A stretch of 64,000 nucleotides of DNA from Phycisphaeraceae bacterium (GCA_963674705.1 OY771506.1:3328001-3392000), one strand, 5' to 3'; shown: positions 37,437 through 52,306, numbered from the stretch's first letter. Notes: generated by a model from the letters alone, not told the origin. Numbers and translations: made by a program.

Positions 37437-37814
37437 CTATTTGGCATGGGAGATTAACTGTGTAAGGATTTTCTTTGTTCGAGATGACGATAGTGTCCTC
37501 TTGAGGACAGCAACAAACTTTTGTTCCGAATCGCATTGCAGTCGGCCTGGCCTTCCAGGAACACTAATTTTTAGCGGATATATATCGATTTTGTTAAAAA
37601 CTGATATCAATGTGTACTCATAATTGTTTAAACGTGGTACACGCACTACTAGTTCTGTTACAAAATCTCCATCAATTTCTTCATTTGTTACTTTACCAAT
37701 TAATAATCCATTTGTTGCTGTAGATAAAAAGTTAGCCTGTTCCTGTAATATTTGTTTTGGCGTACGGATGGGTTCAATATTGCTAAGATCACCCCACAGG
37801 TTGTTAATCGTCAT
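37437..37814 (-). CDS. Small hypothetical protein, partner of the EEP nuclease
   Basis: MTINNLWGD...TPKQILQEQANFL; AT-rich; 11-bp overlap with the upstream gene. Confidence 0.8.
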   Translation of the reverse strand: MTINNLWGDLSNIEPIRTPKQILQEQANFLSTATNGLLIGKVTNEEIDGDFVTELVVRVPRLNNYEYTLISVFNKIDIYPLKISVPGRPGRLQCDSEQKFVAVLKRTLSSSRTKKILTQLISHAK

Positions 37815-38643
37815 TTGTATTCTCCAGTAGTACGTCGAGATTGCAGATTATTGGCAAATGGTCAGATAGATCCTTTTTGTTTGGCCTGCCTGATTGCGCA
37901 AGTAGCGTATTTCCTTGGATATTCGTTATAATCTGAACGGAGTCATTTCGTAGGAAATTTAATAGTGAAGGGCGAATTATAACTTGATCAAATACATTCC
38001 AATAGTAATTTAATTCGTTGCCAGAGTTGTAAAAATATGTTCCCTGGGGAGAATTGTCATCACTACTACTGTATGCAAACCACATTGGATTATACATGAA
38101 AGTGTAAGTTTCGCCGCTAATATTACGAGATGAAGTTGCAGCGATACGTCTGTCCATGACAGCATGAAGACCTTCGGCTCCGACTATACCACTTGCAAAA
38201 GGATTCATGTTGAAATCGCCCATGATAATTGTTCTTGTGTGGCCGACTATTGCTTCTGCTTCACGCACATATCGGGCAATACGTGTACAAATATGAGTTT
38301 GATCTCTAGTGTCTTTCCAAAGCAAGCTCGATAGATGTACGCCTACAAATAAGATGCTTTCTCCTAAAGGCATATTGTAGTGCCGTATTGAAAAATGAGG
38401 CTTATCCATTATTAGCATAGTTTTTTCGATATTGAATCGTGTCAGGATCGTAAGTCTGTCTGAGATACCAATATCATTGAAATAAATTCGATCAGTATTT
38501 TGATTTATAGAATCTGTGAGATCGTGAGTTGGTATTTTGCTTTCAGCTAAAGCAAGTACATCAACGTCATGTTCTAGAGCAAACGCTGATATATGCTCAA
38601 TGGATACGTTGTTTGAAATGTTCCAGAAAGCGAATGTTGGCAT
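37804..38643 (-). CDS. Endonuclease/exonuclease/phosphatase (EEP, DNase I-like) family protein
   Basis: FWNI, LAES, VHL, MGDFN, FDQV, SDHLPI catalytic motifs; AT-rich. Confidence 0.88.
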   Translation of the reverse strand: MPTFAFWNISNNVSIEHISAFALEHDVDVLALAESKIPTHDLTDSINQNTDRIYFNDIGISDRLTILTRFNIEKTMLIMDKPHFSIRHYNMPLGESILFVGVHLSSLLWKDTRDQTHICTRIARYVREAEAIVGHTRTIIMGDFNMNPFASGIVGAEGLHAVMDRRIAATSSRNISGETYTFMYNPMWFAYSSSDDNSPQGTYFYNSGNELNYYWNVFDQVIIRPSLLNFLRNDSVQIITNIQGNTLLAQSGRPNKKDLSDHLPIICNLDVLLENTNDD

Positions 38644-39957: not shown

Positions 39958-40330
39958 TAGGGTTTAGGGTGTAGGGTGTAGGGTGTAGGGTTAAAAAGCG
40001 GGAAATCAGAAAAGCAGGAAAGCAGAAAAGCAGAAAAGCAAAAAATAGAATCCCGATACCCGATACCCGATACCCGATACCCGATACCCGATACCCGATA
40101 CCCGATACCCGGGAAGATACCCGGACCTTCGCTTTGCTCAGGACCGGCGTTGGGGGAGAGAAAGCCATTAGCCTTTAGCGATTAGCCATTAGCAATAACA
40201 TTCCTACACCCTACACCCTACACCCTACACCCTACACCCTACACCTAAATCCACCCGGACCTTCGCTTTGCTCAGGACCGGCGTTGGGGGGAGAGAAAGC
40301 CATTAGCGATTAACGATTAAAAATTAGCGA
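39958..40330. repeat. Large composite repeat region: ~(TAGGGTG)x5, AGCAG(G/A)AA 8-mers, (CCCGATA)x8, hairpin G x2, (CCTACAC)x6, TTAGC(C/G)A heptamers
   Basis: Read directly: CCCGATA 40052-40107; CCTACAC 40203-40244; ACCCGGACCTTCGCTTTGCTCAGGACCGGCGTTG at 40119 and 40253. Confidence 0.9.
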
Positions 40331-40350: not shown

Positions 40351-41292
40351 CTACCTTCTGCGTTCCATCGCCTGGCGGGCGGCGGCTTCGCGTTTGAGGG
40401 CGTCTTTGAAGACGGGGCTTTCGGGGGCGGGGTAGAAGTTGCGGAGGTCTTTGAAGGCTTCGTCGGCGGCTTTGAATTGACCGCTCTGGAAGCGGAGGAT
40501 GGCGTCTTCGTATTTTTCGCTGACGCCTTCGGCGAGTCGCTTCTGGAGGATGAAGTATTGGCGCTGGTCGGTGGCGTCGGGCAGGGCGTCGGCGGCGGTG
40601 TAGGTCAGGGCGTTGCGGTAGGCTTCGTAAGCGCGGTAGAGCGCATCGGTGCGGCGGTCGATTAAGGCGTAAGACTCGCGTGCCTGGGCGACGGCGGTGT
40701 CGGCTTTGCGTTGATCGGGCGGCTGCTTATCGATGGGTCGGTGGATGTAGCCTTCGATCTTTTCGGCGCTGATTGGTTGGGGGAGGTTGTCGCCGGGGCT
40801 GGTGGTTGTGGGGTTGGATTGATTGAGCAGGCTGAAGGCAATGAGGCCCAGCGCGACGGCCCAGAAGACGGCGATGCCGATCCATAGCTTGGTGCGGCCG
40901 CCGGCGCTTGAGTGGACGGCTGGTTCGGGTGTTGCGGTAGCGGTTGTGTCTGTTATTGGTTGTTCGGCAGCAGCGTGGAGGTCGGCTTCATCAACGATGG
41001 GGCTGACGCGGAAGACATCGGTGTCGCCGATGGTGACGGTGGCATTGGCTTTGATGGGTCGCGGCTTCTTGGTGATGCGCTTACCGTTGAGGATGGTGCC
41101 GTTGGGCGAGTGATTGACGAGTTGCCATTGGCCTTGCTCGAAAGCGAATTCACCATGCTCGCGCGAGATGAAGGGCTGGTCGACAGGCAGGACACGGTCG
41201 GTGCTGCGTCCGAAGCTGATGCGCGTCTGGCGTATCAGCAGTTTACGCCCGGCGTTGGGCCCGATGAGATATTCGACCTGAAGCGCGATCAA
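40351..41292 (-). CDS. FHA-domain single-pass membrane protein with TPR-like C-terminus
   Basis: FHA: FGRS...ISREHG...SPNGTILNG...TIG; TM WIGIAVFWAVALGLIAFSLL; overlaps the tadC stop. Confidence 0.85.
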   Translation of the reverse strand: MIALQVEYLIGPNAGRKLLIRQTRISFGRSTDRVLPVDQPFISREHGEFAFEQGQWQLVNHSPNGTILNGKRITKKPRPIKANATVTIGDTDVFRVSPIVDEADLHAAAEQPITDTTATATPEPAVHSSAGGRTKLWIGIAVFWAVALGLIAFSLLNQSNPTTTSPGDNLPQPISAEKIEGYIHRPIDKQPPDQRKADTAVAQARESYALIDRRTDALYRAYEAYRNALTYTAADALPDATDQRQYFILQKRLAEGVSEKYEDAILRFQSGQFKAADEAFKDLRNFYPAPESPVFKDALKREAAARQAMERRR

Positions 41293-42191
41293 AACAGACT
41301 CCCCTGCATGCCACGGATAATCATGGGTGCGAAAACGATGATAACGACGGCGACGAGGATCAGCATGGACGGCACGAGGATGCGGAGGCTGGCGGAGGCG
41401 GAGAGTTTCTCGGCCTGCACGCCGCGGTGCATCCGGAGCATGTCGGATTGCAGTTTGAGGATGGTCGACAAAGGTGTGCCGAGGGTTTCAGCTTGATTGA
41501 CAGCGCCGACGATGGAGCGGAGCGATTCGAGCGGGATGCGGTCTGCCATGTGTGCGAGGGCAGCGGCGCGGGGCGTGCCGAGTTCGACTTCGCTTAAGAC
41601 GAGGGCGAGTTCCTGGTTGAGGTCGTCTTCCGGATCGTCGCGGATCAGCGTCTGGACGGCTTCGGTGAAGGTGGAGCCGGCGGCCATGGTCAGCGCGACG
41701 AGGTCGAGCGTGTAGGGCAGTTGCTTGCCGATCTTTCGGCAGCGTCGCATGCCGGCATCCTGCAATGCGTAGATGGGGACAAGGAAGCCGACGACGGTCA
41801 TGACGGGTCCGACGAATAGCGCGAGCGCACTATCTGCGGCGAAGACGAGCATGACGGAAACGAGCCCGAGTATGGCGGCGCTGACGATGCAGATGGCGAG
41901 GTATTCCTGGACGCTGTAGCCGGAGGGGTTGCCGGTGGCGTCGAGGTATTGTCGGATCTTGGCGCGCGTGCCGGGCATGTTCAGGCGGGCGGTGAGCGCG
42001 AGGCCGAGGTTCATGATCGGTGCGAGCAGTTGGTTTTCGAAGATGGTTTCTCGATCGACGCCCAGCGCCTTGGCGAAGCGCCGGTGGACCGGGGGCTCTG
42101 CGGGCACGGGATAAAGGAACAGCGCGTAGATCGGCAGGGCCACACCGATGAAGATGAACAGACTCACCAGGATTTGAAGGAGTATGTCCAT
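41289..42191 (-). CDS. tadC: Tad pilus platform protein TadC (T2SS F family)
   Basis: LPYTLDLVALTMAAG, ELGTPRAAAL, QAETLGTPLSTIL; start set at ATG 42191. Confidence 0.88.
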   Translation of the reverse strand: MDILLQILVSLFIFIGVALPIYALFLYPVPAEPPVHRRFAKALGVDRETIFENQLLAPIMNLGLALTARLNMPGTRAKIRQYLDATGNPSGYSVQEYLAICIVSAAILGLVSVMLVFAADSALALFVGPVMTVVGFLVPIYALQDAGMRRCRKIGKQLPYTLDLVALTMAAGSTFTEAVQTLIRDDPEDDLNQELALVLSEVELGTPRAAALAHMADRIPLESLRSIVGAVNQAETLGTPLSTILKLQSDMLRMHRGVQAEKLSASASLRILVPSMLILVAVVIIVFAPMIIRGMQGSLF

Positions 42192-42199
42192 GAGAAACC

Positions 42200-43051
42200 T
42201 TAGATATCCACCGCCATGATCTTGCGAATCCAGAAGAAAGCAACCGTGATGAGTACGGCGACGGTCAAAAGCAGCATGCGACCGGCCGGTTCTGCAAACA
42301 AGAGCGAGACGCCCTGCGAATCGATCGTCCACAACAGGGCGAGGAAGACGAAGGGCATCAACGCCATGAACAGCGCCTGGTAGCGTGCCTGGCTGGTGAG
42401 CGCATCGAGTTTGCCTTCGAGCCTGCTGATGTCGCGGATGGATTCGGCGATGCGGTCGAGGCTTTGTGCGGTGTCGCCGCCGCGCAGGCGGTGCATCTGG
42501 ATGGCGGTGAAGGTGAGGCGGTAGAGCTGCGAGCCGATGCGGTTGCTCGCGTTTTGCATGGCCTGGTTAAGGTCCATGCCGAGGCGGTATTCGCGGAGCA
42601 GTTGGCCGATTTCCTGTTTGATCGGGCCGACGCTGTTTTGTTCGAGCAGTTCCATGGACTGGACGAGGTTGAGTCCGGCGCGGGCGGCGGCGGCGAGGGT
42701 GGTCAGGCCGTCGACGAGCTGGCTTTCGAGTTTGCGTAAGCGCTGCGACTCGAGGTGGCGGATGTACATGTTGGGCAAAAGCATCGCGATCGCGCCGCAG
42801 GCGAGTGCAGCGATGACGGACATCGTGATGAGGAAAACGAAGAGGGCGACACCTATGACAAGTCCGGCCGAACCCAGTAGCGCGGTGCGCGGTTCGATGT
42901 CCATCAATAGTTGTTGACGCAGCACGCGGTCGTAGGCTTGCTCCTGTCTTGCGATCATTGCGAGCGACCATGCGTAGCCGTAGCGCACAAACATGTAGAC
43001 CGATGTGAAGGTCAGGACGCAGGCGATGATTAGCAGGAGGGTGGGGGGCAT
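42200..43051 (-). CDS. tadB: Tad pilus platform protein TadB (T2SS F family)
   Basis: QLVDGLTTLAAAARAG, GGDTAQSLDRIAESIR, ALTSQAR. Confidence 0.88.
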   Translation of the reverse strand: MPPTLLLIIACVLTFTSVYMFVRYGYAWSLAMIARQEQAYDRVLRQQLLMDIEPRTALLGSAGLVIGVALFVFLITMSVIAALACGAIAMLLPNMYIRHLESQRLRKLESQLVDGLTTLAAAARAGLNLVQSMELLEQNSVGPIKQEIGQLLREYRLGMDLNQAMQNASNRIGSQLYRLTFTAIQMHRLRGGDTAQSLDRIAESIRDISRLEGKLDALTSQARYQALFMALMPFVFLALLWTIDSQGVSLLFAEPAGRMLLLTVAVLITVAFFWIRKIMAVDI

Positions 43052-43125
43052 GGGGGGGGTGTGAGTGAAGGTTAGTTAGTAGGACGCCCACGTTCGGCGA
43101 ACGTGGGCTTCGGGGGGTGGCGCTT

Positions 43126-44985
43126 TTATAAGAATACGCCGACGTCGAGGATTTTCCTTTCGATGAGTTCTTCGGCGAAGGTTGGGATGTAGCCTGTGTG
43201 TCGCAGGCGCGGTTGTTTGGGGTTACGCAGGGTGTAGATGTCTTCCAGACATAGCTGGTGTGTTTCGGGATCGATCTCGGTGGCTTCACAGATGCGCGTG
43301 ACGCGGCGGCGGCCGTCGGCGAAACGCGCGACCTGCACGACGATGTCGACGGCGGTGTGGATCTGCTCGCGGATAGCGCGGACGGGCATGTCGACAGCCA
43401 TGAGCACGAGGGTTTCCAGGCGTTTCATCGCGTCGGAGGGTGTGTTGGCGTGGAGCGTGGAGAGCGAACCGTCGTGTCCGGTGTTCATAGCCTGGAGCAT
43501 GTCGAGCGCTTCGGGGCCGCGCACTTCGCCGACGATGATGCGGTCGGGCCGCATGCGCAGGGCGTTGCGAACCAGTTCACGGATGGTGTACGCGCCGCGT
43601 CCTTCGATATTCGCTGGGCGTCCTTCGAGGCTGACGACGTGCGGTTGCGGCAGCTTCAGTTCGGCGGATTCCTCGACCGTGATGATACGTTCATCCGGGC
43701 GGGCGTAAGCGCCGAGCACGTTCAGGAGCGTTGTCTTACCTGAACCGGTGCCGCCTGAGATGATGATGTTCTGGCGACCGATGACGCAGCCCTGCAGGAA
43801 TGCGGCGCAGGTTTCGCTTAGGGAGCCGCGTTCGATCAGGTCGTCCATGGTGAACGGGATCCAGCCGAACTTGCGGATCGTCATGCACGGGCCGACCAGT
43901 GACAGCGGACTGATGACGACGTTGACGCGGCTACCGTCGGGCAAACGTGCATCGACAAGCGGTGTGGATGTATCGACGCGTCGACCGACCGGTGAAAGGA
44001 TGCGCTCGATGATCGACATCAACACTTCGTCGGAGAAGAACGTGCGCGAGGTGGGTTGGATGACGCCGTTCTTTTCGATGTAGATGCGGTCCTTGCCGAC
44101 GACCATGATCTCGCTGACGCTGGGCATTTCCAGCAGGTCCTGCAGCGGACCGAGCCCAAGGAGGATGTCCTGGATATCTTTGGACACGCTGCGGCGGACG
44201 ATGTAGCGGGCGAGTTCTTTGGGGATCGAATCGGATTGCTGTTTGTATAAACCGTCGAAAGCTTCTTCAGCCACCGCGAGGTCTTCGCCGACACTGGTCG
44301 GGTCGAAGAGCAGCGGCATCATGTCGACCATCGTCGTGACGAGTTCGGTGATCTGCTGCTGACGTCGTGGATCGAGCAGGGCGTCTTCAGCTTCTTTGTA
44401 GTCGGTTTGGACTTTACCCTGGCATTGCCGAACAACTTCCGCGTTGATCAGGCGCGACAGGTGCTGACGTACGGCGTGGTCGAGGACTTTTTCATCCAGC
44501 GTCTCGACGCGCTTGGTGAGGACCTGGTCCAGATGATGGAGCATCTGCGAGACGAATGCCTGGTCGGACTTATTGATCCTGCCGGTGACGCGCAGGTTCA
44601 TACGGTCGAGCAGTTCGGCGTGGACCTGCTGCTCAAGCTCCATGAGCTTGGCTTGGAGTTCTTCAGACTCATTACCGATGACGCCGGTGCGGTCTTTGCC
44701 GACAGGCGCGAGTGAGAACTGGCCGATCTGCACTTCATCACCGAAGTCGAGGCGTGCTGATTTACCCATCGCGACTTCACGATTGGCAACGCGCGTGCCT
44801 GCACGGCTAAGCGCCTCGACGAACATCTGGTTGCCCTTGAGGACGATGCGCGCGTGGCGGCGGGCGACGAACGGGCTCTTGAGTACGATCGCGCAGGAAT
44901 CATCGCGGCCGATCGTGATGGATGAACCCTCGGCCTGGAGGGTTGAACGCTCGTTCGTGCTGTGATCGTAGAGCCAGAATTCCAT
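43126..44985 (-). CDS. cpaF: FHA-domain-fused TadA/CpaF ATPase
   Basis: N-terminal FHA-like IGRDD...VARRHA...[25 protein letters not shown], Walker [35 protein letters not shown]. Confidence 0.92.
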
Positions 44986-44992
44986 GCGGGGC

Positions 44993-45778
44993 TTATCTCT
45001 CGGGTGCGACGACGCCGCGGTCGATCAGTCGAAGGACCTGCGGGTTGATGCCGCCTTCAGGAATCTTGGGCGTGGTGTTATCGTTGGGATTACGCAGTTG
45101 AATTTCGAAGTCGCCGATGACCATCTTCTTGATCTTGGCGAGCAGCGTGGCTTCTTCGGGCGTGACCTGGATGCTGATGTTGTCGAACCGGTCGCGGCCG
45201 CGCCGGGTTTCCTCATCGGCGATGCTGCGTGTGCCGACGGCGAAGACCTCGACGTTTTCGAGGATCGGCAGGATGTTGACGACGCCGCCGGGGAACTGGG
45301 CTTCGATATCAACGCTCATGCCGGGCACGAGGCTGCCGGGCAGCGTTCGGGCGTTGACCGGCAGGGCGATCAGCCGCATGTTGGGATCGATGCGTGTGTC
45401 GAGTTCGGTATCGTTCGGGTTATTGAACATATCGAAGACGAGGAACTGGTTGCGCTTGGCGATCTTTTCGATGGGCGTGCCGATGTAGGCGGTCAGCGAC
45501 GCGTTGCCCCTGCCGGATTCTTCGACGACGAAACCCTCGAAGGATTTGCTGTAGCTTTTTGGCATGGGGACGGCTTCGACGTCTTTTTCGGAAAGCTTGT
45601 CGCCGGGCTGGAGCGTGGTGGTGAGGCGGTAGACCGTGAAGCGATCTTCGGCGATGTTGCGCTTGATCATGGCCACGTAGAGGTTGACCACGATGACGGC
45701 GGCGACGGCGACCACCGCGGCGATGATGATCAGACGGTTGCTCCCGGGCGGGGCTTGTGTGTTGGGCGTTGCGGCCAT
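44993..45778 (-). CDS. cpaB: Flp pilus assembly protein CpaB/RcpC
   Basis: N-terminal TM, SAF-like segment, MRLIALPV...GSLVPGMSVDI, ILENVEVFAVG, VTPEEA, LRNPND. Confidence 0.85.
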   Translation of the reverse strand: MAATPNTQAPPGSNRLIIIAAVVAVAAVIVVNLYVAMIKRNIAEDRFTVYRLTTTLQPGDKLSEKDVEAVPMPKSYSKSFEGFVVEESGRGNASLTAYIGTPIEKIAKRNQFLVFDMFNNPNDTELDTRIDPNMRLIALPVNARTLPGSLVPGMSVDIEAQFPGGVVNILPILENVEVFAVGTRSIADEETRRGRDRFDNISIQVTPEEATLLAKIKKMVIGDFEIQLRNPNDNTTPKIPEGGINPQVLRLIDRGVVAPER

Positions 45779-45925
45779 GGTTTTGTCACTCGCTTACCGG
45801 GGTGTAACGGCCGGGCGGTGCGTGTAAGCCCGTGCCTGGGTTGATTATAAGGTACTGCATCTATCGGCAAAGCGTCGGACCGGGGGGTTAAAACCCGAGG
45901 TCGGGTTGCGTGCGGAGGGACCGGG

Positions 45926-48472
45926 TCAGGGGGTGGAGCCATTTTCCGCGGCCTGTACCTGTTCGAGCAGCTCGCGCACTTCGTCGGTGGTCCGTATTTC
46001 GGCGGCGATACGCAATTGCGCTCGGGCGCTGGCGTATTCCCCGGCGGCGATGTAGTTGCGGGCCTGGGCGAGCAGGTGATCGAACTCGGCTTCATCCAGG
46101 CGTGCACGGACCTGTGGCGTATCCATCGCTTCCTTGGCGCGGAGGTAGTGGCGTTTGGCTTCGCCGAAGGCGCTGCGGTTGCGGGCCGCGTCGCCGGCGT
46201 TTAGGTGGCGTATGTATTCACCGCGGACTTCGACCTCGTTGCGTACGGCCGCGACGTCGGTGTTGTTCGGTTCGAGTTGGCTTGCCTGGATGATCAGTTC
46301 GTTCGCCTTGTCGATATCCCCGGTTTCCAGCGAGGCGCGGGCCTGCTTGAGAAGGATCTGCACGCGGATGCCGGTGACTTTATCGCTGAGCGGGTTGTCG
46401 GTGCCGAGTTGAAGAGCGTTTTCGTATTGACGCAGCGCGGTATCGTAGTCGCCGTTGGCTGCGGCGGTGTCGCCTGCTTCGATGAAGGCATCACGACGGT
46501 TGGACGAGGCGATGCGTGCCAGGGCGTCGCGTGCCTGCTTGTTGTCAGGATCGTAGCCGAGCGCCTCGGTAAACATCTGGTCTGCGCCGAAGGTGTTGCC
46601 TTGGGCGAGCATACGCAGGCCTTCCTCGACAAGCCAACTGCTGCGCAGCTTGGTGAGTTTGTCTTTTAGTGATTGGTCGTTGGGTAGCGCCTCGATCGCT
46701 TCTTCGTAATGTTGGATAGCCGACTCGGGATCCCCGCGATCGAGCGCGGCCTGCGCCAGAGCGAGCGCCTTGTCGGCGGTCTGCTCGGATTCCAGGCGGT
46801 TGAGGAACTCGGTGACTTCGAGTTTTTGCGGACCAGACTGTAGCAGTTTGATCGCTTCGTTACGGTTACCCGTACGTAATAGATCGTTGGCTTCTCGGAT
46901 CAATTCCTGCACGCGCCAGCGAGCAAGTTGATCTTCAAGCCTCGCGCCTAAGGAGCGCAACGCCTGGTGTTCTTCATCCGATGCCGCGAGGTCGCGCCAC
47001 TCATCCAGTTCTCTGCGGGCCTGGCCGAACGAATGCTCATCGATCAAGGTTTCGATCTGTTCGACGGTTTGCGCGAAGGCTTTGGCTTGCTGGGTTTCGT
47101 CGATAAGGGCACGTGCGTTGTTGCGGTAGTCGTCGCCCAAGTCTGCGGCTTCTGTGTAGGCGCGGATCGCATCGTCGTACTGCTTCTGGTCGAATTTGAT
47201 GTGTCCGCGGGCGAACAGAGCGCCTGCCTGGGCCCGTTTGCCGAACGCCGCCTGGACTTGCTGGTTCTGATCGTTAGCTATCTGATCGAACATGTTCATC
47301 GCGACTTCGTATTTTTCATCGCGATAAGCCTGCATGGCGTCATCCAATGTCTGTCGTGCGGCATCGAGAACGCGCTGACGCTCTGCACGGCTCTGGTTCA
47401 TCATGAAGAGGCCAACACCCGCTGCGGCGAGGATGACGACGGCCGCAGCGATGATGCCGAACTTCATCGCTTTGCCTTTGGTCGGCAGGGCGGTGGTGTC
47501 GCCGGGCGTGGTAGCCTGCGCGGGGACTTCTTCGGGGGGGCCGAAGTCATCGGCGGCGGGGCCTGTGTCTTTACCGTCGAAGTGACGCTTGATCGCGCTG
47601 ATCAGGTCCTTGGCTGAGCCGACGCGCTGATTGGGGTCTTTTTCCATCAAGCGCTGAACGAGATCGGAGATCGGCTGTGGGATATCGGGTAGCAGGTCGG
47701 TTAACGGCGGGGCCTTGGTTTTGGGGTTGGTGTGCCACTTCACCCAGCGCACCGCCTGGTTGCGTTGATCGCGGAGGATGAGTTTGAACGCTTCGTCAAA
47801 CTTCTCCCTGCCGGCGATCATTTCGTAAGCCATCATGCCCAGTGCGTAGAGGTCTGCCCGGCCGTCGACCTTTTTGTTTTCCAGCAGCTCCGGCGACATA
47901 TAGCGGACCGTGCCGGAGGTCGGGCTGGTTTGGTTGTCGATGTCGGTGGCGAGGCCGAAGTCACTGATCTTCAGGCCGCCGGTGCGTGGCATGAGGATGT
48001 TGGCGGGTTTGAGATCGAGGTGGATGATGCCCTGTTTATGGATCGAGTTGAGCGCCTGTGCGGTGGCGGCGATGATGCCCAACGCCTGCTTGAGGTTCAT
48101 CGGCAAGGTGTTCTGGGCAAGGATCTGCTCCAGAGACGGCCCACTGATGTATTCGTTGATCAGCAGCAGGCCATTGGGTGAATCCACGACATCCAGCACC
48201 TGCACGAGCCTGGCCGGGTCTGCCTCGGCCGCCTTCTGGTGCAGCCGCGCCTCGGTCATGATCTTTTCACGCAGTTGCGCTTCATCCTGGTCCGCGTTAA
48301 ATAGAAACTGCTTGATCGCGACCTTCTTACCGAGCAGGTCGTCGACGGCTTTGTAGACGACGGATTGGCCGCCCGAGCCGATCTGCTGCTTGATGACGTA
48401 AGGCTCGACGTGATCGCCCGGCCGCAGGGCTGCGCCGTGGTTTGAAGACGGGTTGGAAGTCGGATCGGTCAT
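45926..48472 (-). CDS. Membrane Hanks-type Ser/Thr protein kinase with extracytoplasmic TPR repeats
   Basis: IGSGGQSVVY, VAIK, HLDLKPANIL, DFGLA, GTVRYMSPE, DLYALG; TM FGIIAAAVVILAAAGVGLF; TPR-like repeats. Confidence 0.92.
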   Translation of the reverse strand: MTDPTSNPSSNHGAALRPGDHVEPYVIKQQIGSGGQSVVYKAVDDLLGKKVAIKQFLFNADQDEAQLREKIMTEARLHQKAAEADPARLVQVLDVVDSPNGLLLINEYISGPSLEQILAQNTLPMNLKQALGIIAATAQALNSIHKQGIIHLDLKPANILMPRTGGLKISDFGLATDIDNQTSPTSGTVRYMSPELLENKKVDGRADLYALGMMAYEMIAGREKFDEAFKLILRDQRNQAVRWVKWHTNPKTKAPPLTDLLPDIPQPISDLVQRLMEKDPNQRVGSAKDLISAIKRHFDGKDTGPAADDFGPPEEVPAQATTPGDTTALPTKGKAMKFGIIAAAVVILAAAGVGLFMMNQSRAERQRVLDAARQTLDDAMQAYRDEKYEVAMNMFDQIANDQNQQVQAAFGKRAQAGALFARGHIKFDQKQYDDAIRAYTEAADLGDDYRNNARALIDETQQAKAFAQTVEQIETLIDEHSFGQARRELDEWRDLAASDEEHQALRSLGARLEDQLARWRVQELIREANDLLRTGNRNEAIKLLQSGPQKLEVTEFLNRLESEQTADKALALAQAALDRGDPESAIQHYEEAIEALPNDQSLKDKLTKLRSSWLVEEGLRMLAQGNTFGADQMFTEALGYDPDNKQARDALARIASSNRRDAFIEAGDTAAANGDYDTALRQYENALQLGTDNPLSDKVTGIRVQILLKQARASLETGDIDKANELIIQASQLEPNNTDVAAVRNEVEVRGEYIRHLNAGDAARNRSAFGEAKRHYLRAKEAMDTPQVRARLDEAEFDHLLAQARNYIAAGEYASARAQLRIAAEIRTTDEVRELLEQVQAAENGSTP

Positions 48473-48534
48473 GCGTTCGGGGGTTTCGTGGTAGCGGGGG
48501 TGTATTTTAGCCTATTTAGGAGGGGGGAGTTGGA

Positions 48535-48616
48535 GCCGTTAGCCATTAGCCTTTAGCCATTAGCTATGAAAAAATGGTCCTTTACGATTCAACATTGCAC
48601 ATTGAACATTGAACAT
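48535..48616. repeat. Degenerate heptamer arrays (TTAGCCA; ATTGAAC)
   Basis: Read directly. Confidence 0.7.
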
Positions 48617-48621
48617 CCCCC

Positions 48622-49161
48622 TTATGTCCATGGCAATTGCAGGCCCAGCAGGTGTTCTGCGGCGGCGAGGATACCGCCGAGGGCGACGGCTGTGCCGAAG
48701 GGGACGGTATGTTTTTCGTTTTCCAGATCGGGTTTGACCCTTGCGGCGGCGGAGAGGATCGCGCCGAAGATTCGGCTGAAGGTCTGCTTGATCAGGCCGT
48801 GATGGATCATGAGGTAGATGGCCATGAGCATTGCGACGATCAGGCCGTAGAACGCGGTACCGAGCACGACCTGCCAGCTTGCACTGATCGCGCCGACGGC
48901 TCCCATGAGTTTTGCATCGCCACCACCGAGCCAGCCTCGCAATGCCATGAGACTGAACGGGACAAGTCCGCAGAGCAATGTGAGGAAGGAGGTGCCGATG
49001 CCTTTGTCGCTGCCGATAAAGCCGGCGAGGAACCAAAAAAGAAGCCCGCAGAGCATCGCGGGCAGGGTAAGCCAGTTGTAGATTTTGCCATGCTTGAAGT
49101 CGGTCACCGCTGCAACAAGCAGGACGAGAACAAGCATGCTAAAGGCGATGATTGCAAGCAC
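48622..49161 (-). CDS. cpaA: Prepilin peptidase CpaA/TadV (A24)
   Basis: TDFKHGKIYNWLT, GGGDAKL, VPFGTAV. Confidence 0.88.
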   Translation of the reverse strand: MLAIIAFSMLVLVLLVAAVTDFKHGKIYNWLTLPAMLCGLLFWFLAGFIGSDKGIGTSFLTLLCGLVPFSLMALRGWLGGGDAKLMGAVGAISASWQVVLGTAFYGLIVAMLMAIYLMIHHGLIKQTFSRIFGAILSAAARVKPDLENEKHTVPFGTAVALGGILAAAEHLLGLQLPWT

Positions 49162-49236
49162 ATTTACCCATCTTCAGCATAATCCGGAAGGACCCCAAAC
49201 CCATAAGGAAACGAAAGACCGCCAACCACGTTCTAA

Positions 49237-49467
49237 TTAATCGAAGGGGCTGGTGTCGTTATTTTCCGCGTCGCTGCTGACATCACTCCACGCGCCCCGG
49301 ACCCATTCATTGAGCCTGTCACGGAAGACGATGAGCACGGCCAGCAGGGGGATGACGATTGCGCCGATGATCAGCAGTTTTTCCAGGCCTTCAGCGCCCT
49401 TTTCGCAGTGGTACAGACGCTTGAGCGCGTCGGCGGTTTTGGTCAGGCGTGATTTGAGCTGTGTCAT
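49237..49467 (-). CDS. Flp-type pilin
   Basis: G|AEGLE (Glu+5) followed by a hydrophobic helix; RBS GAGG; upstream of cpaA. Confidence 0.8.
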   Translation of the reverse strand: MTQLKSRLTKTADALKRLYHCEKGAEGLEKLLIIGAIVIPLLAVLIVFRDRLNEWVRGAWSDVSSDAENNDTSPFD

Positions 49468-49551
49468 GGGTAGGTCCTCGTTTTAGTGACGGCGGCTAAA
49501 GCCACCTCCGCCGAGGCGGTACAAATTTGTGGGTACGGGCTGGTTTACTTT

Positions 49552-49755
49552 TTACGGAAACGGCAGGGCGTTGAGTGTGGTGATCATCTGGTAGTGCGCC
49601 ATCAACGTATTCAGCGCCATCAGGATGATAAAGTAGCTGGGGATGGCAATGGCTCCCAGCAGCAGGGCCCATTCGATGGTGGTCGCCCCGTTTTGGTCGC
49701 TCAGCAGCTTCCTCAGGTGCTTCCCATATCGGGTTGCCGGCCGGCTACGTTTCAT
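49552..49755 (-). CDS. Flp-type pilin
   Basis: DQNG|ATTIEWALLLGAIAI. Confidence 0.82.
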   Translation of the reverse strand: MKRSRPATRYGKHLRKLLSDQNGATTIEWALLLGAIAIPSYFIILMALNTLMAHYQMITTLNALPFP

Positions 49756-49784
49756 ATCGTCCTATTCTACGCTCGGTTAACAGT

Positions 49785-50894
49785 TTATTCCATCCCCAAA
49801 ATTGGCTTGATCCGGTCGGTAATCAGGCTTCTGTGGTCCGAGCCGAGTCGGCCGCCAAGAGCAGAACGCTCGCCGGTCCAGGCTAATTGCATCTGTTTGT
49901 CCTTGTTGTCGTCTTCGGTCTGCTTGAGGACGAATATATCTCGCAGTTGGTATCGGCCTGCGTCGTCGACCTGCTCGACCTCGCTGATCTGGGTGACCAG
50001 CCGACGGCCGCCGATGTGTCGGCTCATATGTACGACCAGGTCCACCGCCGAGGCGATCTGGCTCCGCAGGGCGAACAGGGGCAACTCGACCTTGCTCATC
50101 AGGGCCATGGTCTCGAGGCGGTTGAGCGTATCGGCGGGGCTGTTGGCGTGGAGGGTGCCCATCGACCCGCCGTGGCCGCTGGTCATCGCCTGGATCATGT
50201 CCAGGGCCTCGCCACCGCGGACCTCACCGATGATGATCCGGTCGGGCCTCAGACGCAGGCTGGAGCGGAACAGTTCCCGGATGGAGACAGCGCCTCGGCC
50301 GTATCGGTCGGGCTGCTGGGCCTCGAGCGAGATCATGTGGGTTTTTTGAAGCTGAAGCTCGGCCGAGTCCTCGATGACGACGATCCGCTGCTCATCCGGG
50401 ATGAAACTGGACAGGGCGTTGAGCAGGCTGGTTTTCCCGGAGCTGGTGCCGCCGGCGACGAGCAGGTTCTGCTCCGCGTTAACCGCGAGCTTGAGGTAGT
50501 CCCGGGCCTGGGCGGTGATCGTGCCCAACTCGATCAGCCAGTCGATGTCGAGCACCATCTGGCTGAACTTGCGGATGGCCATGGTCGTGCCGAAACGGGC
50601 GCAGGGGGCCTTGGCGACGTGGACACGCGAGCCGTCGGGCAGGCGGGAATCGACCAGCGGGGTGTTATCGCTGAGCGATCGGCCGGTGAATTGCAGGATG
50701 TTATTGATCGCCGCCTCGTACGCTTCCTGATCGTCGAAACGGGCATCGGTGTGGATGACTTTGCCGTCTTTTTCGATGTAGATTTCGTCGCAGCGGTTGA
50801 TCATGACCTCGGTGACACCGGGATCGTCCAGGTACGCCTTGATCGGCGACAGGTAGTGCTCGACGGTGCGGACGAATAGTTCCTGGGAGGGCAT
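49785..50894 (-). CDS. cpaF: Second TadA/CpaF ATPase (no FHA)
   Basis: [61 protein letters not shown]. Confidence 0.92.
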
Positions 50895-51023: not shown

Positions 51024-51347
51024 TCAGACCGCTTCGGCGAAGCTCTGGGGGCGGGCGTAGCGGACGGCTACATGCTGGGTGTCGCCGTGGCCGAGGCTGC
51101 GGACGATGGTGGCTTCGACGAAGTCTTCGGTGGTGAGCATGCCACGGGTGGGGTTGGAGACGATACCGATCTGTACCTTCTGGCCGGTGCAGAGCAATCG
51201 TGGGTAATCGAGCATGAGCATGGCCCCGCCGTCGGAGACGTTGTCGGTGGTCCCGGCGATGTACCGGCCAGCGGACTGGTCACACTTGATCTTGACCGGG
51301 TGCTGAGCAGGGATGCGTGGATCTCGGCGTCGTTCAGGCGTGGTCAT
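51024..51347 (-). CDS. Single-domain PilZ protein
   Basis: ERRRDPR (RxxxR) and NVSDGG ((D/N)xSxxG); start set at ATG 51347. Confidence 0.85.
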   Translation of the reverse strand: MTTPERRRDPRIPAQHPVKIKCDQSAGRYIAGTTDNVSDGGAMLMLDYPRLLCTGQKVQIGIVSNPTRGMLTTEDFVEATIVRSLGHGDTQHVAVRYARPQSFAEAV

Positions 51348-51556: not shown

Positions 51557-52306
51557 TCAAGCCGCGGCGGTGCGTTTGACGTTGCGGCGTTTGCGGCCGA
51601 CGGTGCGTTGGTCGCTGGTCATGCGGCGTTCGGGGTTCGCCTGCATCTGTTCGACCAGTTCCGTCGGGTCGTTTGCCCAGAGGTCTGCGCCGATTTCTTC
51701 GGCCAGGCCGTCGGCCCGGTTGAAGATGCCGCCGCCCACGATCACCTGCACTTGTTCGTTCGCGCCAATCTCGTGCATGCGGTCGATCAGCAGTCGTGTT
51801 TCGGGCACGGTGCTGGGCACGGCGCCGAAGATCACGAGCTTGTCAGCCTTGAGTTCGGTGAGTTGTTCGACGACTTCATCGTTGGCGATGCCGCCGCCGG
51901 CGTAGAAGACGGTGTAGCCGTCGGCCTCGAGCAGGTCGGCTGCCATCTGGGCGGCCAGTTCTTCAGACTGCTCTGCGCCACTGACCAGCAGCACCTTGAT
52001 ACCCCGGCGGGACGACTGCTCGAGGCGAAGCTGCATCTGATCGACGAGCTGGCGTAGCAGGCGGGTGGCGTAGTTGTAAGCCAGGGGGGTGAGTTGGTCG
52101 TTTCGGTGCAGGTTCTGGAAGTGTTCGAGTGTAGGCCAGAAGAGGTGGCTGAGGATGCGGGTTGCCGGGGCATCGGCTTGCAGGGCCTCGTCGACGATGG
52201 ACCGAGCGGTGATGCGGTCGCCACTGATCAGACTGGTGAAAAAGCGTTCTTGCAGGACGTTACGTCGACTCGCCATGAGGGATACTCCAACGTCGTTCAT
52301 GGTCAT
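51557..52306 (-). CDS. B12-binding-domain-like protein lacking the DxHxxG motif
   Basis: Helical cap plus Rossmann-like ADLLEADGYTVFYAG, VIVGGG, EIGADLWA. Confidence 0.75.
   Translation of the reverse strand: MTMNDVGVSLMASRRNVLQERFFTSLISGDRITARSIVDEALQADAPATRILSHLFWPTLEHFQNLHRNDQLTPLAYNYATRLLRQLVDQMQLRLEQSSRRGIKVLLVSGAEQSEELAAQMAADLLEADGYTVFYAGGGIANDEVVEQLTELKADKLVIFGAVPSTVPETRLLIDRMHEIGANEQVQVIVGGGIFNRADGLAEEIGADLWANDPTELVEQMQANPERRMTSDQRTVGRKRRNVKRTAAA

Follow-up and report, generated by a model that had tools for sequence, protein, structure and literature searches.

How a Tad/Flp pilus could be placed under a Ser/Thr kinase, and which protein would read the phosphate that such a kinase adds, is the question raised by a locus of a Phycisphaeraceae bacterium (GCA_963674705.1, OY771506.1:3328001-3392000). 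The stretch of 64,000 nucleotides that was analysed, here called the window, holds at positions 40351-50894 a Tad/Flp pilus operon that carries its own membrane Ser/Thr kinase. The operon also encodes two FHA proteins, one of them a CpaF-type motor ATPase with an N-terminal FHA domain (FHA-CpaF) and the other a protein with a single transmembrane (TM) segment (FHA-TM). It has been proposed that the FHA domains of Tad systems, in KilF and class III CpaF, convey a phospho-signal, but the portions of the two reports covered here name no kinase and no site (PMC8460266; PMC12019362). The present locus offers a kinase in synteny, Thr326 as the one candidate residue and a prediction, at the level of residues, of the FHA domain that reads it, and it indicates that an FHA domain on a motor cannot be taken to bind phospho-Thr by default.

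In the reading preferred here, to which a probability of about 0.58 is given, the kinase would phosphorylate Thr326 on itself and on a catalytically dead twin, FHA-TM would dock on the phosphorylated residue, the resulting complex would license pilus assembly, and the motor would join through a phosphate-independent contact of its FHA domain. The phosphorylation and binding steps are those that we infer from gene content, synteny, kinase residues, the Thr motif and FHA residues. A preliminary description of the locus had proposed instead that an extracytoplasmic TPR signal is relayed through the kinase to the pilus motor itself.

A Tad operon with a syntenic kinase

The ten genes, all on the minus strand, run in the order cpaF, flp, flp, cpaA, kinase (with TM segment and TPRs), cpaB, FHA-cpaF, tadB, tadC and FHA-TM, as the preliminary description had read them (Table 1). 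Of the components expected of a Tad system, those found are Flp prepilins, a TadV/CpaA peptidase, a CpaF/TadA ATPase, TadB together with TadC, CpaB/RcpC and, at a displaced position, TadE/TadG.

The kinase is a syntenic and co-inherited part of this system, and the gene arrangement is far beyond chance. Among 20 regions that were fetched, the kinase is present in all 19 with an FHA-cpaF locus, and the twentieth, a Tad locus of the same family with plain cpaF, has no kinase within 20 kb. By scanning species genomes, relatives of the kinase were confirmed at 444 loci; at the best 80 of these, which were analysed in detail and many of which are cut by contig ends, tad genes occur at 77, FHA-cpaF at 56 and FHA-TM at 42. 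In an even sample of 150 genomes of the class, the kinase is found in 48 and the FHA-plus-helical part of CpaF in 47, with both in 47; the two lie within 10 kb of each other in 38 of these genomes, on different contigs in 8 and far apart on one contig in 1. The synteny of kinase and tad genes, on which the preliminary description depended, is therefore well borne out.

A fuller gene order, cpaF-flp-flp-cpaA-tadE-kinase-tadG-tadE-cpaB-FHAcpaF-tadB-tadC, is seen in 20 loci of five other families, picked from 37 kinase-positive genomes because both genes share a contig, and FHA-TM then follows in 11. In a sample of 300 genomes of the phylum there were 11 matches, and of six FHA-cpaF matches outside the order, three have a kinase gene downstream of tadC, one lies at a contig edge and two stand alone. 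No match reaching the FHA part was present among the best 30 of 476 records from a plasmid collection. The same compact operon occurs in a cultured relative, Poriferisphaera sp. WC338 (L058).

One genome carries a second, divergent Tad locus (L035, G033:C2:36000-55999), in which secretin, TPR protein, cpaB, FHA-cpaF, tadB, tadC, FHA-TM and kinase genes lie on one side and face a set on the opposite strand that comprises cpaF, flp, cpaA and minor pilins.

The kinase and its juxtamembrane threonine

The kinase consists of a cytoplasmic kinase domain (aa 25-287), a linker, a TM segment (aa 340-358) and a TPR array beyond it, which agrees with the membrane kinase with external TPRs that had first been described. 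The TM segment places the catalytic domain inside the cytoplasm and the TPRs outside it, by inference in the periplasm. All covered rows of 80 kinase orthologues retain residues K54, E74, D153, K155, N158 and D171; the catalytic Lys is present in 77 of 77 covered rows, the catalytic Asp and the DFG Asp each in 80 of 80, and the αC Glu is also present. The catalytic residues are likewise invariant in the 20 kinases of the other families. Kinases of this genus are of the non-RD type, with HLD where 68 of 80 kinases have HRD.

The linker varies from 29 to 101 aa in length, and Thr326 alone stands out in it. The position is occupied by Thr in 77 of 80 aligned kinases and never by Ser, with an aliphatic residue three places farther on (+3) and then Pro (+4); among the columns of aa 300-325, none rises above 38 of 80. 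In an alignment-free count, 70 of 75 kinases have the motif T-x-x-[LIVM]-P no more than 25 aa from the TM segment (shuffle mean 2.7, maximum 8), where five of the 80 without a detected TM segment were dropped and kin are not independent. All 20 kinases from the other families (shuffle mean 0.6) and all 12 degenerate kinases (shuffle mean 0.5) have it as well, and the Ser version of the motif is at background level. Ligands of FHA domains follow a rule at the +3 residue, and conservation as Thr only, together with an aliphatic +3 residue, fits such ligands. The Thr326 motif is therefore, judging from conservation, a likely docking site for an FHA domain, the specificity of which is for phospho-Thr (PMC4238996).

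It is also conceivable, although very doubtful, that the main substrate is another Tad component, either CpaF or a platform protein, and that the juxtamembrane motif is kept for packing or localisation. A precedent exists in Agrobacterium's type VI secretion system (T6SS), in which PpkA phosphorylates the core protein TssL and Fha then binds it (PMC3953482), and FHA-CpaF has conserved non-catalytic threonines at positions 134 and 194 (31/33). These threonines, however, lack a class-wide +3 aliphatic-Pro context, and the kinase motif is conserved as Thr only within a linker of highly variable length and survives in dead kinases.

At one distant locus (L128), a single case, the N-terminus of the membrane protein is not an FHA domain and the kinase lacks the Thr motif. 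Two Tad-linked kinases outside the class (L127:13952-17203 and L125:14032-16905) have a different extracytoplasmic part, in which repeated beta-rich segments and a C-terminal domain like formylglycine-enzyme folds can be recognised by eye, and they retain the Thr-x-x-aliphatic motif before the TM segment.

Two FHA domains with different residues

Five residues are conserved in FHA domains, namely Gly, Arg, Ser, His and Asn (PMC4238996), and the effect of a Ser-to-Ala change on FHA binding has been described (PMC4238996; PMC3953482). The N-terminus of FHA-CpaF does have the FHA fold that had been assigned to it, as judged from the Pfam match, the alignment to GarA and OdhI and the AlphaFold model. 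The domain retains Gly26, Arg27 and His44, with Ala41 in place of Ser and Ala62 in place of Asn. Among 56 orthologues of this lineage, with the register checked against GarA, the Ser is present in 3 and the Asn in none; of the eight FHA domains of the genome, that of the motor is the sole one without the Ser. By the five-residue criterion the motor FHA is thus not of the canonical phospho-Thr-binding type. In FHA-TM, Gly28, Arg29, Ser43, Arg44, Asn64 and Gly65 are present in 42 of 42 orthologues and His46 in 41 of 42, so that this domain is canonical by the same criterion.

The assignment differs between lineages. In the other five families the motor FHA is canonical, with Ser in 20 of 20 and Asn in 19 of 20. 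In three of them (f96, f102 and f106) the Asn is kept by no more than 2 of 11 FHA-TM proteins of the operon, after L171_14_487, a row with an unrelated FHA, had been dropped from 12, and the motor FHA is canonical. In the other two (f97 and f104; 10 genomes) both readers are intact, since the motor is canonical in 9 of 9 and a displaced FHA-TM is canonical in 9 of 9 found. Each of the family groups examined has one or both of its FHA proteins in a largely canonical form. The idea that a canonical motor FHA goes with the absence of FHA-TM was rejected, because in f97 and f104, where the operon ends at tadC, 9 of 10 genomes have the gene at another place and its FHA is canonical.

That the signal of the kinase is read directly by the motor, the FHA of CpaF still binding phospho-Thr through its remaining Arg residues, is unlikely for this genome. 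Such binding would be consistent with the retention of Gly26, Arg27 and His44 in 56 of 56 orthologues and of Arg or Lys at position 42 in 49 of 56, and because 19 of 20 loci of the five other families have a canonical motor FHA, the ancestral motor was probably a reader. On the other hand, the Ser and the Asn are found in 3 and 0 of 56 motors versus 42 of 42 FHA-TM proteins for both, and the other seven FHA domains of the genome retain the Ser. The relay to the motor itself that had been proposed is accordingly not supported in this genome, but it fits the five other families, where an intact motor FHA would read the same site; the role of reader would then differ by lineage.

In the AlphaFold model, FHA-CpaF is composed of the FHA domain (aa 1-95), a six-helix region (aa 103-276) and the ATPase (aa 278-619), with short low-confidence gaps only and no long disordered linker after the FHA domain. 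Its top Foldseek matches are the CpaF structures 8rjf and 9e24. An internal duplication of the helical region is not claimed, as the hhalign probability is 24%. The FHA domain of FHA-TM superposes on the GarA FHA structure (VIA Z 15.1, root-mean-square deviation 1.8, 95 aligned) and is cytoplasmic; the extracytoplasmic part is modelled as TPR-like helical hairpins. Of the FHA-TM-TPR architecture that was first given to this protein, the FHA domain and the single TM segment stand, and the TPR label is weak, because the protein itself has no Pfam TPR match, TPR_6 is matched in 4 of 35 homologues and the hhalign probability against the TPRs of the kinase is 33%.

Elsewhere, one FHA-TM orthologue (L022:4831-5757, G007) loses similarity after about aa 217, which suggests a frameshift or an assembly error. 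Matches to T2SSE-family ATPases number 18 above cut-off in the genome, and a second FHA-fused secretion ATPase, of the PilB/GspE type and with a canonical FHA, is encoded at G000:C1:960722-962638 (+).

A displaced minor-pilin cassette and a dead kinase copy

The ten-gene run contains no minor pilins and no secretin. A cassette that is homologous to the in-operon minor pilins of relatives, with two TadE matches (C1:771893 and 777319) and a second kinase-like gene between the minor pilins, lies 2.6 Mb away and is part of the same Tad system. At least two kinase matches occur in all 10 other genomes of the genus. The second copies of this genome and nine relatives all (10/10) have Lys-to-Arg and Asp-to-Gly changes at the catalytic sites and keep the Thr motif. 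In one genome (G041) the situation is reversed, with the operon copy dead and the displaced copy intact, and in two others (G016 and G022) the displaced cassette has no kinase at all.

The dead copies branch by themselves (support 99) in a quick tree of 58 kinases, apart from the active kinases of the genus, and the view of the dead kinase as a recent twin of the operon kinase of the genus was therefore rejected. Because of this separate branching and of the two cassettes without a kinase, the duplication is placed earlier, with patchy retention.

These copies also bear on the possibility that the kinase is chiefly a scaffold, in which the TPRs span the periplasm and phosphorylation marks assembly in one direction only and is not a signal-driven switch. 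Dead copies with intact TM segment, TPR array and Thr motif have been maintained under selection, the activation segment of the kinase has no conserved Ser/Thr before the GS/GT motif, no PP2C phosphatase was found in the genome, and the kinase gene lies among minor-pilin genes in 20 of 20 loci of the other families, all of which speak for such a role. The catalytic residues, however, are invariant in both sets of orthologues (80/80 and 20/20), and the genomes examined that carry a dead copy also carry an intact one. A role chiefly as scaffold is judged distinctly improbable, and it is compatible with the docking step of the preferred reading.

No match to PF13629, the N-domain of RcpA/CpaC-type secretins, was found in the genome, and the Caulobacter control was positive; five other secretin genes lie elsewhere. 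The secretin and TPR genes that precede cpaB in L035 are matched best in this genome (37% and 31%) by genes next to a PilB-like ATPase at C1:1.38 Mb, so that the secretin may possibly be a shared one. The run has no gene for TadZ/CpaE, and a PF16968 search was empty in the genome as it was in every control genome.

Proposed mechanism

In the mechanism preferred here, assembly would start with an active kinase that phosphorylates its own Thr326, in cis or in trans, and the same Thr would be marked in trans on the dead copy whose gene lies with those of the minor pilins. Phosphorylated Thr326 would then be bound by the FHA domain of FHA-TM. The kinase/FHA-TM pair, with its periplasmic TPR and helical domains, would organise CpaB, TadB/TadC and both ATPases, and the TPR array may sense the state of the envelope or of assembly. 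The altered FHA of the motor is predicted to join without phosphate, and docked FHA-TM likely licenses assembly of the pilus machine.

Several observations weigh against this reading. Because Gly-Arg and His are kept in the motor FHA and basic residues usually follow the lost Ser, weak phosphate binding by the motor is possible, and in Fha of Agrobacterium secretion was no more than reduced by the single changes S46A or R30A (PMC3953482). The motors that have lost the Asn fall into one clade (support 100 in a quick tree), and the loss hence counts as one event, the kin not being independent. At L035, the divergent locus, the set of five residues is complete in neither FHA domain. Outside the class, no tad or kinase neighbour was detected for two (L124 and L129) of six FHA-cpaF genes, and the kinase beside L125 appears degenerate. 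Conserved threonines are also present in FHA-CpaF and cpaF1 and are possible targets. Finally, PF13672 and PF00481 gave no match to a PP2C phosphatase in this single-contig genome of 96.6% completeness (controls positive in 8 and 7 of 14), so that a "switch" is at most conjectural; six SpoIIE-type phosphatase domains are present elsewhere in the genome.

A wider synthesis can be offered tentatively, with the odds against it. In Phycisphaerae, the Tad machine would be built around a receptor-like kinase whose single juxtamembrane phospho-Thr is the licence for assembly, and the two FHA readers, motor and membrane adaptor, would have traded the job between lineages. Once the operon had split, a dead kinase twin encoded with the pilus-tip genes would be phosphorylated in trans, coupling the tip to a two-motor core, and if the system is Kil-like, this would be the missing kinase step of contact-triggered assembly.

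Features of the locus and neighbouring DNA

Gene identities rest on Pfam and NCBIfam matches; both pilins and the peptidase score under curated cut-offs, with motifs and positions as expected, and the G-cleavage/E+5 prepilin motif can be read in both flp1 and flp2. In cpaF1 the Walker A Lys, the Asp-box Glu/Asp and the Walker B Glu are invariant in covered rows of 60 orthologues, so that the catalytic motifs are intact. For tadC, a GTG open reading frame from 42332 would overlap tadB, and orthologues are mostly 300-305 aa long. A scan for promoters and terminators gave chance-level results.

Table 1. Positions of the features discussed; numbers refer to the window, or to contig C1 of this genome (G000) where so marked.
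Feature	Position	Strand	Evidence or remark
cpaF1, short CpaF/TadA ATPase of 369 aa, lacking both FHA and N-terminal helical bundle	49785..50894	-	Pfam T2SSE E 1e-53
flp1 prepilin, 67 aa	49552..49755	-	Pfam Flp_Fap E 2e-5 (under cut-off); prepilin motif; one TM; syntenic
flp2 prepilin, 76 aa	49237..49467	-	Pfam Flp1_like E 1e-4 (under cut-off); prepilin motif; one TM; syntenic
cpaA/tadV prepilin peptidase, 179 aa	48622..49161	-	NCBIfam FlaK E 5e-6; four hydrophobic segments; syntenic
Hanks-type Ser/Thr kinase, 848 aa	45926..48472	-	Pfam Pkinase E 6e-51; several TPR matches; one TM
Juxtamembrane motif Thr326-x-x-Leu329-Pro330 of kinase, predicted phospho-Thr docking site for FHA	47483..47497	-	Conservation; shuffle test
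cpaB/rcpC, 261 aa	44993..45778	-	Pfam RcpC (PF16976) E 8e-8, above cut-off; TIGR03177 E 5e-14, under cut-off
FHA-CpaF motor ATPase, 619 aa	43126..44985	-	Pfam FHA E 3e-13 and T2SSE E 7e-60; AlphaFold model; Foldseek
Non-canonical FHA of motor	44701..44985	-	Alignment to GarA/OdhI; residue counts in 56 orthologues
tadB platform protein	42200..43051	-	Pfam T2SSF E 1e-14
tadC platform protein, about 300 aa	41289..42191	-	Pfam T2SSF E 1e-12
FHA-TM protein, 313 aa, predicted phospho-Thr reader	40351..41292	-	Pfam FHA E 2.5e-12; TM aa 138-156; model confidence (pLDDT) 89.8
Displaced cassette tadE - pseudokinase - tadG-like (686 aa) - tadE, locus L041	G000:C1:771140-777612	-	2.6 Mb from run
Pseudokinase, 864 aa, TM, TPR-like C-terminus	C1:774136-776730	-	Second kinase-like gene between minor pilins

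Upstream of cpaF1, at a distance of 130 bp, lies a stand-alone PilZ gene (51024-51347, minus strand) with RxxxR and DxSxxG motifs, which we take to be of the cyclic di-GMP type. Because of this gene and its motifs, and of a homologue in 22 of 80 kinase loci, an input of cyclic di-GMP to the operon is possible. Farther upstream, a gene at 51557-52306 (minus strand) encodes a B12-binding-domain protein without an obvious DNA-binding domain and has a homologue in 21 of 80 loci. On the other side, the gap between FHA-TM and trpB (39958-40330) holds a cluster of tandem repeats with units of 7 and 8 bases, together with an element of about 55 bases that is nearly duplicated; heptamer arrays of a similar kind are found in further gaps between genes, two units having 14 and 22 arrays genome-wide. 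Downstream of trpB, a pair of genes low in G+C (37437-38643, minus strand), one of the exo/endonuclease/phosphatase family and one of 125 aa without a Pfam match, was possibly acquired.

Comparison with known systems

The fusion of an FHA domain to CpaF is not new, since both KilF (PMC8460266) and class III CpaF (PMC12019362) have been published. The Kil system of Myxococcus xanthus is a Tad-like machine with the FHA-fused ATPase KilF, encoded in two gene clusters, in which FHA and FHA-plus-TPR proteins adjoin the platform genes and phospho-signalling has been proposed (PMC8460266). It differs from the present locus in that, in the portions covered, no kinase domain is reported for the clusters and one FHA-plus-TPR protein carries only a "Protein kinase G" match label; the word kinase is absent from the main text. 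Kil has one ATPase and its own short secretin, KilC, whereas the locus described here has a kinase, two CpaF ATPases and no secretin (PMC8460266). A review regards the Kil FHA proteins as promising candidates for coupling contact signals (PMC12428579). The pilus of the present locus may serve either adhesion or Kil-like contact killing.

Class III CpaF shares the N-terminal FHA domain, which is followed by an intrinsically disordered region, a three-helix bundle and the ATPase (FHA-IDR-3HB-ATPase); in the protein described here a helical region replaces the disordered linker, and the FHA lacks Ser and Asn (PMC12019362). The 18 Planctomycetota rows of that report all belong to class I or II, none being Phycisphaera-type by name, and the word kinase is absent from its supplements (PMC12019362). 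In the literature covered, to which subscription papers and bioRxiv supplements did not belong, no paper was found that deals with a Tad-operon Ser/Thr kinase or with the Tad systems of Phycisphaerae, and nothing of use emerged on FHA domains that act independently of phosphate. FHA is absent from the covered part of a review of type IV pilus motor control (PMC11656802), and neither FHA nor kinase was returned by a term search of the covered part of PMC12075869.

In the PpkA/PppA/Fha module of T6SS, a membrane Hanks kinase and an FHA protein are likewise encoded with an envelope machine, and docking of phospho-Thr to FHA activates assembly (PMC3953482). The machine is a different one, and the present locus has no cognate PP2C and has two FHA proteins, one of them fused to a motor, with the predicted site on the kinase itself. 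In the mycobacterial PknB/FhaA/MurJ(MviN) system, the juxtamembrane region and a trans-phosphorylated pseudokinase both recruit FhaA, but control is exerted on cell-wall synthesis through a PASTA sensor and a soluble FhaA, in place of the TPR sensor and the membrane FHA found here (PMC6180346). In Sulfolobus, ArnA and ArnB tie FHA and Ser/Thr phosphorylation to a type IV filament; they repress expression and are never encoded in the filament locus, whereas the FHA proteins described here belong to the operon and are bound to the membrane or fused to the motor (PMC4858521). Set beside these systems, the locus is a real and conserved variant of the Tad system that had apparently not been described.

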